In this document: positions 16,145 through 55,541 of the stretch, piece by piece
How the letters are laid out: each line of letters opens with the position of its first letter
How positions within the stretch are numbered: the first letter of the stretch is position 1
Source: Octopus vulgaris
Lineage: Eukaryota
Reading direction: 5' to 3'
DNA: 64,000 nucleotides
Assembly (NCBI GenBank): GCA_951406725.2
Contig: OX597827.1
Span: forward strand, 6,944,001-7,008,000
Made by a program: the position numbers and the translations under genes
The notes under the pieces: model-generated
The model's database searches: none
What the model was told of the DNA's origin: nothing
Seen by the model: only the letters and a program-made list of their open reading frames with translations

Positions 16145-16825
16145 TATGCAGGACTCATTTATTTCAAGTTGCCACCCATGTAAGTGGTAACTATACTCAA
16201 ATTAATTCAACACGCGTGATGTATACTTGAAGTTTTGACTTCTAAATGAAAACTGTACAGTGCACGTGGATTTACTAAATGGAGATCATATTGTTAAGTG
16301 GATCATCTTGAGTGTCAAGGCAGTCACAACTTTTAAATAATATACTTATAAATGCCTTGTTGTCGACTGCAAAGCTTTTGTAGTTTGAACAATAATGAAT
16401 TTGGCTTTTCAACAATCTGCTGAAATTGTACGGTAGAAATCTTAAAATTTTGTAGCCACACAAGATTACCAAATTAAAAATGAAAACGCAGTTATTTAAA
16501 CTAAATGGTTTGAGTTACTGCCCTTCGATACTACCCTAGTGAAAAGAAAAAATATTTGTGATAAAACTCAGAGTCTTTGTAATTATCATATATTCATTCT
16601 AGTCACTGACAATTAACATTTTGATTGCACTTAAAATTATTTTCTAATTATAGATTCACCCTCTTACACATAGTCAAACTTTCATTAATTCTAGAATTCT
16701 CTGGAACAAAAATGATAAATTCTGAAATTTAATGAAATTATACCTTCTCTATTATTTACTATACTTGATCGTACAATTTACATTCCATTGTAAGACTTCT
16801 GGAAATCATGATGAAATACAAATAT

Positions 16826-17191
16826 TAGAAAATTATTTTAAAATCTCACGAGAGATATTCAGCAACAGTACTTAAGAGTAAAGGTTGTTTGCCAACATAA
16901 CATAGCAGTCCTGGTTTAGGACAAATGTTGCTGTAATTTAGCCCCAAGAGACATCGTCTCCAGCTGGCTATTCGACACAATCTGTGTCCTTATATTTTCG
17001 AACAAGGGAATCTAGCACCCCCACTCAGCTCAAAACAACATCTCTGTATCTTGATTTCCAGGTTATTTTCCTTCATCAGCACAGATCATGTGGTATAACC
17101 AGCTGGAGGCGATGTCTCCTGGGGCTAAATTACAGCAACATTCGTCCTAAACCAGGACTGCCATGTTATGTTGGCAAACAACCTTTACTCC
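16826..17191 (-). mobile_element. Retrozyme-like insertion B with an inverted 5' segment
   Basis: 12-bp TSD AAATACAAATAT (16814-16825 and 17192-17203); ~96-bp inverted repeat (16876-16971 vs 17095-17190); body colinear with the 343-nt unit at 36884-37776; contains a hammerhead motif. Confidence 0.75.
17040..17086 (-). ncRNA. Type I hammerhead ribozyme (canonical CUGAUGA core, slightly degenerate)
   Basis: Minus strand reads AUCUGUG-CUGAUGA-AGG(AAAAUAA)CCU-G-GAAA-UC(AA)GA-UA^CAGAGAU; stem I has one mismatch and there is an extra G before GAAA. Confidence 0.62.
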
Positions 17192-17346
17192 AAATACAAA
17201 TATGTTTGAAAAATTCTGATGATAATAAGTAAACTATTGAATTACATCATTTTCTATGTAACGACAGATTTAACTTGTGAATAAATAAACCATTTTAGAA
17301 ATATACAAACTTTTACACATCAGAATAACTTTCAATAAGTACTTAC

Positions 17347-19690: not shown

Positions 19691-19791
19691 CTAGAAATAT
19701 CCAGATGTGAATGAAGTTAAAACGTGAGAAGAAAAAAAAAATAACCCTTACATCTGTTTTATACACAAAATAATTAAACATCTATGTAGTA

Positions 19792-19968
19792 TTCTATTGT
19801 GTCTGGGGAGAGTCATTTTCTTTTTGTGCCTTATTGTGTAACACACTCACCGGTAAAATTGTCCTAAATAATAAGGCACAAAAAGAAAATGACTCTCTCC
19901 AGACACAGTAGAGTATGCTTCAACACACGAACTCATAAAGAATCTTGCAAACCAAATCCAAAAACGAA
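19792..19968. mobile_element. Short insertion with 45-bp inverted repeat (Penelope-like inverted structure)
   Basis: 12-bp TSD ATCTATGTAGTA (19780-19791 and 19969-19980); arms 19791-19835 and 19870-19914. Confidence 0.65.
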
Positions 19969-32837: not shown

Positions 32838-33218
32838 AATAATAGCAATTATTTCAAATAGTGTAAATGTAATATTTCTCCAACCGTAAAGATTGTGGAA
32901 GTCAATAAATATTTGTTGCTTCTCAATTTCATTTGCAGCACTCGTATGGTACTTTTCCCATTTCAGTTAATTTTTTGAAGCAAATACATGCAGAGAAGAC
33001 ACAGGTACAAAAGAGGGAACAATTTAAAAGTAAAATAATGTGATTTTTAAATATTTTCTTCAAATGATTGCTCTTGCAAAGGTGTATTTACATGGTACCA
33101 AAATGATTGCTCTGAAATATATATAAAGCAATTATATTTCATACAGGAACACAAAAACAAATGAAATATGCAACAACCCTTTTTTTCTTGATATTTCAAA
33201 TAAATATAAGCAATTTAC

Positions 33219-35605
33219 CTGTTCAGGTCTGTTCAAAGTAAATTTGTTCCACTTATCACTTGGTATGGTTCTGCAGTAAGTATCTTCCCTATAAACCTTT
33301 GATTCTTGAGATGGCTTCAGATTTCTCTCCAATGTGTACTGAACTCCAGGAGGAACACAAGTAGGATCAAATATATATTTTGATTGGATGTTTAATGCAG
33401 GTGTAACCTTGTGGTACATATCAACACTGTTGTTATAGTTGTTGTCTGTCTGCTTCAGTCTATGAACTATACAGGTCGATATAGAGATCACTATGACAAC
33501 TGATACGATCACAGCTGCTATAACAATAACAATCATCACATTCAATTGGAGACCATTACTTGATTCTGTTGTTGTCTTTGAAGGGGTCTTAAATATCTTT
33601 GATGTGCTGTTACTAACTGTTAGAGTCAAAGACAAAGTTGTTGTCGATGACAGAACTGGACTGCCACTGTCTTTCACACCTAATTCCAGTTCATAGAATC
33701 CAGCATCATTTTGGTAAAGTGAGCGAGAGAAAGATAAGACACCAGAGTGATGGTTCATTTGAAATAAGTGTTTCTCATTACCTCTGAGTATTTCATATGT
33801 GAGGAAGGCATTGTGTTGACTGTCTCTGTCAGAGGCCCTAACAACTGTGATATCGTGGTCAGAGTGGGGATGGTAGTGGACATTAAGACTGAAAGGGTCA
33901 ACATTAGGGAAACTGAAATAGGGAGCATTATCATTTAAATCCATAACCTCAACAACAACATTTGCTCTCTTCTCCAGTGATGGTGTTCCTTTATCTTTTA
34001 CTAAAACCTTAAACTCATACAGGTTCTTTTCTTCTCTGTCTAGGGACTCAGTTGTGGAAATAAATCCCACATCAGATATCTGAAATGGTAGAATATCTTT
34101 TCCATTAGATAACAGAGAATAGGTTAATTGTCCTCCATCTCCAATATCTGGGTCTGTAGCATTGACATATCCAACAGGAAAGTCTTTGTGTTCATTTTCA
34201 TAGGTGAGAAACTTAAATATGTCCTGACTAAACTGAGGTTGTACATCATTTATGTCAGTGACCAGCACAGAAAACTGTTTCTCTACTTTCAATGGAGGTA
34301 AACCATTATCTTGACATTTAATGGTGAAATTAAAGCTCTTCTCACTCTCTCTATCTATTTCACTCTTGACAACAACTTTGTATTTCTCTGCAGATACTGA
34401 GATTAGCTGAAGGTATCTGTTTTGTAAATGACACTTCACTTGTCCATTTTCTCCACTGTCATTGTCAATAACTTTGACATAAGCAACATACCTGCCGGCT
34501 CGAATTGCTTCTGAAATGAGAATTGTGTTTCCAGTTGTCTTTAAGAGAAACATGACATCAATATTTGGTGGATTATTACGATGTGTGACACCATTTACCA
34601 GAACAATGGCTGTTGAGGACATAGGTATTTTACCACAATCCCTGGCTTCAACAGTTATTTTATACATTTTTCCAAATTGAAATTCATTTGTTATAAACAT
34701 TTCTCCTGTCGTCTTATACAATTTAAAACACTGTTTGATTTTATTTGGAGTTTTAGCACTAAATATGTATGAAATTTTCCCATTTTCCCCTTCATCTAAA
34801 TCAGTAGCCAACAACCTTAGAATCGGTTTGCGCATTTGATGTGTGTCATTTAGAGTCACATTGTAGATATTTGGGAAAATACAGGGAAATTATCATTTTT
34901 ATCTTCCACTAAAATTTTGATGTCCAATATACCTTCTTTTGGTGGAGATCCCCCATCTGTGGCAATCAGCTGAAGATTATAAATGCTTTTAGTCTCACGA
35001 TCTAAGTTACCTTCTAGAATTATCTGTAATACACTAGATTCATCTGCTCTCTTCAAAACAAACAATTTGAACGGAATATGTAAATCTCTTAGCTGATAAT
35101 TGATCTTTGAGTTCTGAATACTGACATCGTTATCAATGGCATTTGGAAGTGTTTCTTTTCTTCCTTTTGCTGCACTTTCATCAAACTTTAAATGCAATTC
35201 CTTTTTTTGAAAAATTGGATAATTATCATTGACATCTTCTATCATAACTTTGATTTCTAATATCTTAATAAAAGAATGGCTATTTTGAACTGCTATTTCC
35301 AATATTCTGAAACATTCCACATCATATTGACACAGAATCTCTGCATCCAATATGGCAGCTGTGTGCAGTTGTCCTCCAGGTGTAACATTAAACAACTGAA
35401 CACTTCCATCGGTACCACCCTGGAGTATATTAAATGAAAATTTGTTGCTCTCATCCTTAGTCTGTATATCATCCAGTAAGTGTGTATCAGTGACAATATC
35501 TCCAATATAACTGTTTATATCATTGTTCTCTTTCACATGGTAGATATGATCCACACACCAGCAGCTGTCAGCTGTCAACAACACCAACAAAACTATGAAT
35601 AACAT
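33219..35605 (-). CDS. Pcdh: Protocadherin gene 4, large coding exon with 1-bp frameshift at ~34873 (pseudogene or assembly error)
   Basis: ORFs 34856-35620 and 33132-34859 join into a full Pcdh; GGG here versus GGGG in the near-identical gene 2 tract; CAG|GTAAAT donor. Confidence 0.88.
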
Positions 35606-35826
35606 GGCTAAAGTCTTCAAGTCTGTTGCAAGGATACGAATGTGTAAAGTTGATAGAATCTATCAAAGAATTGTGACTTCTTGAATATATTCTTTTTTTC
35701 TGTCCTGTAAACATGTAAACGTATTATGCATAAGAAAGGATGTAGTAATTAAAAAAATTCATATAATTTGTAAAATTATAAATTATGGCAAGGTGACAGA
35801 ATCATTAGCACACCAGACAAAATGAT

Positions 35827-36723: not shown

Positions 36724-37146
36724 TTAATACAATAGAATTTTATGATATTTCCCTCCTGCACAAATAAGTTATGCTTTGATGTGTAAAAATATTACATAAA
36801 TCATCTTATCTCTTTTTCTGTAACAAATATTACTTAAATTGTTATCATTTCAGGAACCTACTTTATCACTAAACCAAATGAAGCTGCTGACCTCCCCTGT
36901 TCGAAGGTTATAATGGACACAGGTTCATGTGTCACATAGCTAGCTAGAGGTGATGGCCTCTTGGAGCTAATCAACGGCAGCATTCGTCCTATTTATCTGG
37001 ACTGCCATGTTAGGTTGGCGATAACTATTAATATCCAGTACCGCTGCTGTAGTCTCCTTTAGAGAGACTTAGAAATAATGATATTTCTATTTTTGAAAGC
37101 CAGTGGATGTATTCCACTGAATTTAGGTAAATAATCCTTTGACACC

Positions 37147-37218
37147 TGCTGGGTTCGGCCACTCCACATTGATAAAAAGCAAACACCTTGAAACTAGTCT
37201 GTGGATGCCAAGCCAGCA
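37147..37218 (+). ncRNA. Type I hammerhead ribozyme, U3-A8 variant (copy 1)
   Basis: UCCACA-UUGAUAA-A-AAG(CAAACAC)CUU-GAAAC-UA-GUC^UGUGGA; stem I extended by GGC/GCC and UGCUGG/CCAGCA; predicted cut after C37199. Confidence 0.82.
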
Positions 37219-37489
37219 AGGGGAAGCTGCTGACCTCCTCTGTTCGAAGGTTATAATGGACACAGGTTCATGTGTCACATAGCTAGCTAGAGGTGATGGC
37301 CTCTTGGAGCTAATCAACGGCAGCATTCGTCCTATTTATCTGGACTGCCATGTTAGGTTGGCGATAACTATTAATATCCAGTACCGCTGCTGTAGTCTCC
37401 TTTAGAGAGACTTAGAAATAATGATATTTCTATTTTTGAAAGCCAGTGGATGTATTCCACTGAATTTAGGTAAATAATCCTTTGACACC

Positions 37490-37561
37490 TGCTGGGTTCG
37501 GCCACTCCACATTGATAAAAAGCAAACACCTTGAAACTAGTCTGTGGATGCCAAGCCAGCA
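37490..37561 (+). ncRNA. Type I hammerhead ribozyme, U3-A8 variant (copy 2)
   Basis: Identical to copy 1, 343 nt downstream; predicted cut after C37542. Confidence 0.82.
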
Positions 37562-38147
37562 AGGGGAAGCTGCTGACCTCCCCTGTTCGAAGGTTATAAT
37601 GGACACAGGTTCATGTGTCATATAGCTAGCTAGAGGTGATGGCCTCTTGGAGCTAATCAACGGCAGCATTCGTCCTATTTATCTGAACTGCCATGTTAGG
37701 TTGGCGATAACTATTAATATCCAGTACCGCTGCCGTAGTCTCCTTTAGAGAGACTTAGAAATAACGATATTTCTATAAATGAAGGAAAGATATTTACATA
37801 AATTCAATTGGCCTAGAATTTTATGATACTATTTTCCTCCAACACAAACAAGTTGTGTTTTGGTATCTAAAAATATTACATCAGATGTCTGATCTCTTAT
37901 TTGACACAATATCTTAAATTTTTATCTTTTCAGAAACCCAATTTATCACTTCAACTAGTGAAAAAGATAAATACATAAATTTCACTGGTCTACATCCCTT
38001 AAATCATTTAATTTTCTCAATAGACAAAATGAAATAAAAAAAACAGCATCTACACTGACACTCAAAGACCCCTTTTCGAATATTTGTTGAAACTGTTTCC
38101 CCCATCACAAACTGTCATAATATTTAAAAAGTGAATACATTGGATGA

Positions 38148-46471: not shown

Positions 46472-47401
46472 GGTTACAGCCTACAATTCTGTTACAAGGA
46501 AATATATGTATAATGTTGATGAAACCTATGAAATAATGACTTCTTGAATATTTTCTTCTGTTATCACCTGTAAACATATGAAACATAAAAGCTAATTATG
46601 CATTAACAAAGATGAAGTGATCTAGAAAATTCTCATCAGTGAAAACTGGTAGCAATACAAAATTTTACCAACATATTACAAGGTGTGTCAAAAAATCTAC
46701 ATTATCATTCCTTTCTTTCTATTTATATGCATTTGATAGAATTTTATGTTATTTTCCTCCTACACATTTAATTTATGTTTTAGTGTGTAAAAATATTACA
46801 TCAATTGTATGATCTCTCGCTCTTTGTAACAAACATTTCTTAAATTTTCATCATTTCAAGAACCAACTTTATACTTCAAATAAAAGAAGGAAGCATTAAC
46901 ATATGTTTGACTGGTCAACAACTTAATTTATCTTATTTTCTCACAACATGTACTAAGAAATGAAGCCTACACTGACAATTAATGAACCGTTTCCAAATAT
47001 CAGTCAAATCTCCCCCAAATCACAAACTATCATAATATTTAAAAAGGGGACATATTGGATAATGTATATCAAAGTCCAGCATGGCACAAGACAAAAAGAT
47101 ATGATTATTATGGTTAGAACTGCCTTTGATCATTGATCTATCCAATTAGAAACAACTTGAGATTTAAATTTTGATTGGCAGTCAAGTAATATATAATTAT
47201 ATAATTATCATGTTTCTATACATTATCCACAATCAAGTCTGATTAATAAATGATAAAAGCATTTTGAAAAATACATTCATAAATACATTATGGTAAGCAG
47301 TAAGTTTTGTAGCCTAAAGAATATCCAGTTGAGCTTTTACAATTTTTTCGTCTTAAAAGCCTTCCTTGGGACTTTTCGTCTTCCTTCCCTTCCTTCTTCT
47401 A

Positions 47402-47438
47402 TGTTTCTGACGAGGGGTTGCGCTCGAAATGTTAAATA
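47402..47438 (+). ncRNA. Degenerate minimal hammerhead motif in a Penelope-like relic
   Basis: UGUUU-CUGACGA-G-GGGU(UGC)GCUC-GAAA-UGUU-AAAUA; paralogous copy at 55412. Confidence 0.45.
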
Positions 47439-47499
47439 CTCCATCTTTCATTTCTTTCCTGAGCATCAAAGAACTCTGTCTCTTTATTCATGTTTGGAG

Positions 47500-47549
<50 letters not shown>

Positions 47550-54381: not shown

Positions 54382-55411
54382 GGTTACAGTCTACAATTCT
54401 GTTACAAGGAAATATATGTATAATGTTATTGAAACCTATGAAATAAAGACTTCTGGAATATTTTCTTCTGTTATCACCTGTAAACATATGAAAATATAAA
54501 AACTGATTTATGCATTTAATAACGATGAAGTAATCTAGAAAATTCTCATCAGTGAAAACTGGTAGCAATACAAAATTTTACCAACATATTACAAGGTACG
54601 CAAAAAAAATCTACATTATCGTTCCATTCTTTATCTTTATATGCATTTGATAGAATTTCAAGTTATTTTCCTCCTACACATTTAAGTTATGTTTTAGTGT
54701 GAAAAAATATTACATCAATTGTATAATCTCACCCTTGTAACAAACATTTCTTAAATTTTCATCATTTCAAGAACCTAATTTATACTTCAAATAAAAGAAG
54801 GAAGCATATTAACATATGTTTGACTGGTCTACATCTGTTAATTTATCTTAAATTCTCATTTTGTGTACTAAGAAATGAAGCCTACACTGACAATTAATGA
54901 ACCTTTTCCAAATATCAGTCAAATCTCCCCCAAATCACAAACTATCATAATATTTAAGAAGGGGACATATTGGATAATGTATATCAAAGTCCAGCATGGC
55001 ACAAGACAAGAAGATATGATTATTATGGTTAGAACTGCCTTTGATTATTGATCTACCCAATTAGAAACAACAGGAGATTTAAATTTTGATTGGCAGTCAA
55101 GTAATATATAATTAGCTTTTCCACTGAAATCATGTTTCTATACATTATCCACAATCAGTCTGATTAATAAATGATAAAAGCATTTTTCAGCAATACATTC
55201 ATAATCACATTATGATAAGCAGTAAGTTTTGTAGTCTGAAGAATATCCAGTTGAGCTTTTCAGCAATTTGCTGTAGAAAGAAAAACTTAATTTTTGTTGT
55301 AACATTCTAAAAGCACAATATGCTATGGGGTTTACTTTTTCTGTGGCCGTGTGTTTACCGTTGGCTATTTTCTTTCTCCGTCTTCCCTTCCTTGGACCTT
55401 TCCTTTTTCTA

Positions 55412-55448
55412 TGTTTCTGATGAAGAGCTCCGCTTGAAATGTTAGATA
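55412..55448 (+). ncRNA. Degenerate minimal hammerhead motif in a Penelope-like relic
   Basis: UGUUU-CUGAUGA-A-GAGC(UCC)GCUU-GAAA-UGUU-AGAUA. Confidence 0.5.
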
Positions 55449-55541
55449 CTCCATCTTTCACTTCTTTCCTGAGCGTCGAAGAACTCTATACTTGTTCCAC
55501 GTCCTCACATTGTTGTGTTTTCTCTTTGTTCATGTTTGGAG

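Follow-up and report, generated by a model that had tools for sequence, protein, structure and literature searches.

A truncated hammerhead ribozyme repeat with an inverted arm in the protocadherin cluster of Octopus vulgaris and its likeness to Penelope-like element insertions

Retrozymes are defined as tandem units without an open reading frame (ORF) that carry type I hammerhead ribozymes and give circular RNA (PMC7229834). Penelope-like elements (PLEs) were proposed in 2020 as candidate mobilisers of animal retrozymes (PMC7229834). Vertebrate retrozymes have been derived from PLE pseudo-LTRs, with homology described in Xenopus; the same study calls the mechanism unexplained and places invertebrates outside this analysis (10.64898/2026.07.22.740005). 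Insertions of PLEs often comprise an inverted 5′-truncated copy, a tail of 30-40 bp at one end and duplications of 8-10 bp (PMC8557442, PMC3846280). With purified protein of the anole PLE, both strands of AT-rich sites were cut and extended; its reverse transcriptase (RT) uses two internal RNA start sites, which bound the tail, mostly on RNA that is uncut at the hammerhead (PMC11167929). In O. vulgaris, PLEs make up 6.83% of the assembly, with 190 families and 30 recently active Penelope families (PMC13282606), and Penelope is among the abundant repeats of cephalopods (PMC8967140). Our literature searches listed no description of an octopus retrozyme, and the O. vulgaris repeat library may list the family under another label; the available text of PMC10886601 has retrozymes only in its references and in a remark on plant retrozymes.

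The repeat studied here, element B, occupies positions 16826-17191 of the window (the whole 64-kb stretch of DNA that was analysed) and lies inside the protocadherin cluster of O. vulgaris. The window contains seven tandem cadherin-type genes, all on the minus strand, and for the gene adjoining element B, 85% of its length matches an O. vulgaris protein named protocadherin with 100% identity. Element B has the same orientation as the flanking genes and is located in the non-coding spacer that separates the final coding exon of one cadherin gene from the first of the next. In the large exons of the seven protocadherin genes (1572-62287), identity is 97-99% over the second halves and lower over the first halves, a pattern like that of gene conversion. 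The protocadherin exon at 33132-35659 (-) falls in two reading frames, which suggests a frameshift or an assembly error. A separate 56-bp inverted repeat with a 14-nt spacer (19790-19915) is MITE-like or a hairpin; an Rfam miRNA match to it scores below the gathering score.

When compared to EN+ PLE insertions (Pen2a_Av of Adineta, PMC3846280; PMC8557442), element B shares the head-to-head inverted and truncated 5′ copy, the tail at one end, the AT-rich target and the hammerhead in the repeated end. The target site duplication (TSD) is 12 bp in element B, in contrast to 8-10 bp in the published PLEs (PMC8557442, PMC3846280), and unlike Pen2a_Av the 260 nt of element B contain neither an ORF nor an ORF start (PMC3846280). 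The Poseidon element PAc of Anolis carolinensis resembles the family of element B in its two defined internal 3′ ends downstream of the hammerhead, in the need for a template uncut at the ribozyme and in the apparent use of both target strands (PMC11167929). However, the ends of PAc lie within its ORF, whereas those of the B family, which follow the cut site at distances of about 170 and 220 nt, lie in a non-coding domain predicted to form several helices (PMC11167929); the comparison sets biochemical results for PAc beside sequence data for B. Metazoan non-LTR retrozymes share with element B a type I hammerhead and a TSD over 4 bp (PMC7229834; 10.64898/2026.07.22.740005). Their units are about 170-400 nt long, with a GC content under 50% and no ORF (PMC7229834); in the 260 nt of element B the GC content is likewise under 50% and there is no long frame. 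Mussel retrozyme units of 350-390 nt are close in length to the 343-nt tandem unit of element A, a relative of element B in the same window (PMC7229834; 10.64898/2026.07.22.740005). Unlike retrozyme tandems, element B is less than one unit plus an inverted arm (PMC7229834), and the available parts of the retrozyme descriptions include no tail, inversion or shared structured end (PMC7229834; 10.64898/2026.07.22.740005).

Structure of the insertion and kinship with a tandem element

The features of both elements are listed in Table 1. The 12-mers on either side of element B are identical, and the same 12-mer is present once in all five paralogous spacers that were aligned; the 12-bp duplication is therefore host-derived, and the TSD recognised in the original prediction is genuine. 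The target is AT-rich. The direct arm is truncated in the 5′ arm of hammerhead stem I, and beyond 17085 the contigs of the family have other sequence. The inverted arm ends 50 nt before the 3′ end of the direct arm. A minus-strand element reaching to 17090, with an inverted body copy of about 96 bp at its 5′ end, had been described before; the inverted copy is present but is 112 nt long, and the direct arm stops at 17085. The direct arm has a GC content of 0.39. A long open frame running through either element B or element A was looked for and none was found. Element B has no poly(A) end, and the tandem-repeat listing of the window has no entry at 16.8-17.2 kb.

Table 1. Positions of the features of elements A and B in the 64-kb window
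Feature	Position	Strand	Remark
Element B, left TSD copy, 12 bp	16814-16825	+	identical to 17192-17203
Element B, direct arm, 260 nt (hammerhead, structured body, tail)	16826-17085	-	homology to element A
Element B, tail, 50 nt, direct arm only	16826-16875	-	inverted arm stops at the equivalent of 16875/16876
Predicted multi-branch domain (7-bp closing stem, two inner hairpins), common to element A	16860-16933	-	separate and joint folds
Predicted long hairpin with internal loop	16939-16970	-	two pairs with both partners different in A and B
Predicted short hairpin, conserved with element A	16974-16988	-	
Predicted type I hammerhead, damaged in the element B copy	17041-17085	-	core at 17079; cut between 17047/17046
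Six nt common to both arms at the head-to-head junction	17080-17085		
Element B, inverted arm, 112 nt (body copy without tail)	17080-17191	+	92% identity to direct arm
Element B, right TSD copy, 12 bp	17192-17203	+	first 3 nt also match family sequence
Element A, 2.6 tandem units of 343 nt, no inverted arm	36884-37776	+	
Element A, TSD, 8 bp	36876-36883 and 37777-37784		

In a colinear alignment, about 200 nt of the minus strand of 16826-17086 matched the 343-nt unit of element A at 71%. The local alignment score was 139, while 1000 dinucleotide shuffles gave 22.4 ± 3.4 with a maximum of 39, so that the colinearity first noticed in short motifs stands against shuffled controls. Also as anticipated, the 3′ ends coincide within 1-2 nt (TTTCTA in element B, TTTCTAT in element A). 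Element A is flanked by an 8-bp duplication of its own and sits at another site, so the two are independent insertions of related families, in agreement with what had been proposed. A profile built from both elements detected no additional copies within the 64-kb window. A 20-nt motif common to A and B was found at no locus in viral contigs and at two loci in metagenome contigs, where the likeness was limited to the motif itself. The heptamer GTTCGAA is conserved in both elements 42-43 nt after the cut site (16997-17031, -). Five places differ among the units of element A. At two places, TG in units 1 and 2 stands opposite CG in unit 3, a distribution that points less to three rounds on a single circle than to a mixed, multimeric template or to local duplication at a later time. 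Element A is located inside a direct duplication of host spacer of about 150 bp (36733-36882 and 37814-37962, 77% identical).

Type I hammerheads were searched for on both strands of the whole window, with 30 shuffled windows as control. Six matches were obtained, compared to a mean of 0.23 in the shuffled windows; one of them is in element B and two are in element A, where the predicted hammerheads have a U3-A8 core variant and cut after 37199 and 37542. The distance from cut site to tccc motif, previously given as about 38 nt in B and about 36 nt in A, was measured as 37 and 36 nt, respectively. In the element B copy the hammerhead is damaged, with a G-G mismatch at 17044 in stem I and no palindrome in helix III. 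The family letter at 17044 (99% in run X1) gives a perfect 6-bp stem I, and the majority letter restores this stem in all four runs that were aligned. Family letters at 17051 (61%) and 17052 (45%), unphased and taken from X1, would make helix III palindromic as in element A. Rfam gave no match on element B at E≤10 and three on element A, all below threshold and at chance level; at E≤1 the window had 12 matches, all outside the two elements. Behind 17043, loose contig ends (21 contigs in X1) seem to represent a B subfamily with another helix III palindrome and a GUC cut triplet, with an agreement of only 0.6. Two similar copies of a minimal-type hammerhead-like motif with an extra A before stem II are found about 8 kb apart at 47401-47500 and 55411-55540 (+), each followed by a (TA)n run. 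They showed no similarity when compared with elements A and B and are possibly remnants of another PLE.

A conserved structured domain in both elements had been put forward from the alignment, and the folding predictions agree with it: elements A and B gave the same helices when folded separately, and the joint fold, with one row for each element, had 40 consensus pairs, of which none was broken, three were changed on both sides and seven on one side. The joint fold energy was -46.8 kcal/mol compared to -15.6 ± 3.4 in 300 column shuffles, for a structure derived from A and B themselves, two sequences that cannot prove covariation. Single-strand folds had modest z-scores (-2.9 for B, -2.0 for A, -1.3 to -1.6 for the hammerheads).

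The family in public contigs

The stretch of element B was present, whole or in part, in 20 of the 24 public runs listed (four organism labels, 10 studies). Contigs of four runs were aligned to 16500-17110 at 80% likeness, namely the two large runs X1 (guessed to be DNA) and X2 (of unstated kind, treated as DNA), and X15 and X17 (both guessed to be RNA, a type that the records give for none of the runs). In the bins of 16878-17024, the depth relative to the flank was 16,000-33,000-fold in X1 and 12,500-41,000-fold in X2; these ratios are sums of contig depth and not copy numbers, and the contig counts given below are likewise not copy counts. The element B family is a very abundant, high-copy octopus repeat. 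The flank of element B had no cover in X15 and X17, which says nothing about expression of the locus.

We then considered where contigs leave the element, for which 24 of 531 rows of loose ends were listed. Among these rows, the strongest on the 3′ side fall into two groups. In the first, 35 contigs of X1 and 17 of X2 had loose ends before 16834, followed by an AT-rich and poorly agreeing flank, and 40 and 34 contigs, respectively, had loose ends before 16848 and carried the family's own tail letters. Together this distal group (75 contigs in X1, 51 in X2) extends in family tail letters to about 16824-16826. A proximal group had loose ends before 16876/16877 (79 contigs in X1 and 55 in X2 among the rows listed) and went over at once into AT-rich, poorly agreeing flank. 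These two groups show that 3′ ends of the family are preferred at two positions about 50 nt apart, matching the ends of the two arms of element B. The proximal one falls within the predicted multi-branch domain. The expectation of a defined 3′ end, taken as the start of reverse transcription, is thus borne out in that 3′ ends are clustered across the family, but they are clustered at two places and not at one. By eye, the tail letters of the family align to the 3′ end of element A better than the letters of the element B copy do.

Opposite-strand joints accounted for 11 of the 15 joints listed (35 in all) and were found at different places, four of them in both DNA runs; inversions are thus common and arise anew with each insertion. 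When compared to the commonest family letter, the element B copy has 11 differences between 16874 and 17051. At five of the six places in the shared stretch where the direct arm departs from the family, the inverted arm keeps the family letter. At 16884, on the other hand, both arms share a rare G, where 97-98% of the DNA depth has A. Element B is an old, decayed copy, the arms of which probably decayed separately.

Mode of insertion and class of the repeat

We interpret element B as a truncated insertion of a high-copy hammerhead repeat that is related to element A, is likely non-coding and was likely copied in trans by the RT/GIY-YIG endonuclease of a PLE, with a probability of roughly 0.55. 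Its head-to-head inverted arm, one-sided tail and short TSD at an AT-rich target match published PLE insertions, as the inverted 5′ segment had suggested from the beginning. The PLE families of O. vulgaris offer candidate partners for such copying (PMC13282606). The geometry of the insertion is seen at the locus itself; for the enzyme, the priming and the joining we infer the following course. A PLE protein would bind the structured RNA downstream of the ribozyme and nick the target strands 12 nt apart. One target 3′ end would prime cDNA at the distal start, which is the end of the tail, and this cDNA would pass a ribozyme that was uncut or had been religated. The other target 3′ end would prime at the proximal start 50 nt upstream. 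The two incomplete cDNAs would join head to head, in element B via the six shared nucleotides, and repair would fill the duplication. After insertion the arms would decay separately, and within host transcripts the arms of such copies would pair and subsequently be edited by ADAR.

An RT or GIY-YIG ORF was found neither in element B nor, read by eye, among the 23 ORFs of at least 120 aa in the window. That element B would be non-autonomous rests on its kinship with element A, since the upstream sequence seen reaches only about 30 nt past the hammerhead. It speaks against our interpretation that the tail of element B is 50 nt long compared to 30-40 nt in published insertions, and that element A, of which one insertion was seen, has no inverted arm. 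Priming by long homology between target and template was rejected, as the family matches the target of element B by only two to three A/T letters at either end. The TSD of element B resembles the sequence at the 3′ end of element A at 11 of 12 positions, and the target of element A does not match the A template.

The inverted arm could also have been made by the same family and mobiliser in another way, in which the 3′ end of the first cDNA folded back onto the upstream 6-nt match and extended itself, and the endonuclease cut the resulting hairpin 50 nt before its end. A 6-nt match at the junction is rare by chance (0.00065 per random pair), and self-priming with resolution by the endonuclease has been proposed for the inversions and tails of PLEs (PMC8557442, PMC3846280). 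The rare G shared at 16884 likewise agrees with one arm copied from the other, and it fits two cDNAs from one source equally well. In the 11 other opposite-strand joints (from the 15 of 35 listed), however, microhomology was not above random, with a mean of 0.36 or 0.55 compared to 0.60 when computed on the letters of the element B copy, and an obligatory microhomology at inversion junctions was rejected for this reason. Moreover, both tail boundaries of the anole PLE were RT start sites in vitro (PMC11167929). We consider fold-back rather unlikely.

A different question is what kind of repeat was inserted. Element A has the genomic part of the retrozyme definition, being tandem with a hammerhead in each complete unit. 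Element B has less than one unit and one hammerhead at its locus, and no tandem or circular join of B was seen in the joints listed (15 of 35) or in the rows of loose ends listed (24 of 531), so B is at most a candidate retrozyme. With a lower probability than our preferred interpretation, B may instead be the 5′-truncated 3′ end (pseudo-LTR and tail) of an autonomous PLE, and A an ORF-less tandem derivative of a related pseudo-LTR. Element B has the textbook anatomy of PLEs, most copies of which are 5′-truncated (PMC8557442, PMC3846280); truncated PLEs typically carry hammerheads singly or on opposite strands, and it was searches with a PLE that led to the description of the U3-A8 core found in element A (PMC4209133). 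The depth of the family falls towards the 5′ side across the cut site (about 5-fold in X1 and about 4-fold in X2, where end effects may contribute), and one contig from an RNA run continues for 1,311 nt past 17085. In contrast, body and tail of element B contain no ORF start, whereas the pseudo-LTR of Pen2a and PAc holds the first codons (PMC3846280, PMC11167929). The family letters would make stem I 6 bp long and helix III palindromic, which is the canonical metazoan and not the minimal PLE form of the hammerhead (PMC4209133), and element B is homologous over its full length to the ORF-less 343-nt unit of A. The whole-length kinship with A, the missing ORF start and the canonical family hammerhead favour B as a non-autonomous unit. 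A retrozyme-type unit and a remnant of a PLE would in any case share one mechanism of insertion.

A tRNA-derived SINE, a MITE or an assembly artefact would account for the very high copy number and the long inverted repeat, and an 11-mer at 17031 in element B, one mismatch away from the A-box consensus, was counted in favour of a SINE; this box is absent from element A. However, no tRNA gene was called in the window, the end is not poly(A), and the best B-box match has three mismatches. A Pol III promoter in element B was rejected on account of this unsupported B box. The inverted arms do not lie at the termini, and their junctions differ among the joints listed. As to an artefact, contigs at flank depth cross the left junction of element B in both DNA runs, X1 and X2; none of the contig pieces listed spans the inversion junction of the locus. 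We regard all three as very improbable.

The truncated, trans-copied hammerhead repeat that we favour can be taken one step further. Somewhat short of even odds, A and B may be two retrozyme families that keep a covarying domain of about 200 nt as a docking signal for the two starts of a Penelope RT. If this were true, A and B would be direct genomic evidence for the mobilisation of retrozymes in trans by the machinery of PLEs, starting at defined internal positions; octopus transcripts would in addition contain thousands of ADAR-edited duplexes, seeded by the inverted arms that the insertions make themselves. The insertion anatomy of PLEs is textbook knowledge and a PLE origin of animal retrozymes is in print; what is new is PLE insertion anatomy in a relative of a retrozyme, together with A>G/T>C changes restricted to RNA that hint at editing of inverted arms. 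The value of the locus lies in this editing hint and in the common structured domain, through which a tandem retrozyme is tied to PLE-type ends. A high-copy family with such ends near a homologous tandem retrozyme offers a short, defined RNA for testing trans-mobilisation and the structure bound by the RT.

RNA-only sequence changes

Nine variants reached 5% or more in an RNA run while staying below 1% in X1 and in X2 (38 RNA-covered rows; 40 of 48 rows listed), in a comparison in which DNA and RNA come from different individuals and the RNA label is guessed. All nine are A>G or T>C and lie within the stretch common to both arms, whereas 12 of the 16 DNA-polymorphic variants in the rows listed are C>T or G>A. 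The RNA-only changes occur on both strands, and one is in a predicted loop. The signal stems from other copies of the family, as no RNA covers the flank. These changes suggest that ADAR acts on long duplexes, for example paired inverted arms, and that, in an animal that edits heavily, inversions made by PLEs give rise to edited double-stranded RNA. The neighbour preference of ADAR is weak when taken alone, with no 5′ G in the nine (P=0.15) and a 3′ G in five of nine (P=0.03). A>G editing of repeats in non-coding RNA of coleoids is known in general (PMC9068888), and the changes seen here are of the same kind. Unlike in the edited coleoid repeats described in that source, the likely duplex in the B family, as it appears from unmatched runs, would be made by the insertion itself (PMC9068888).
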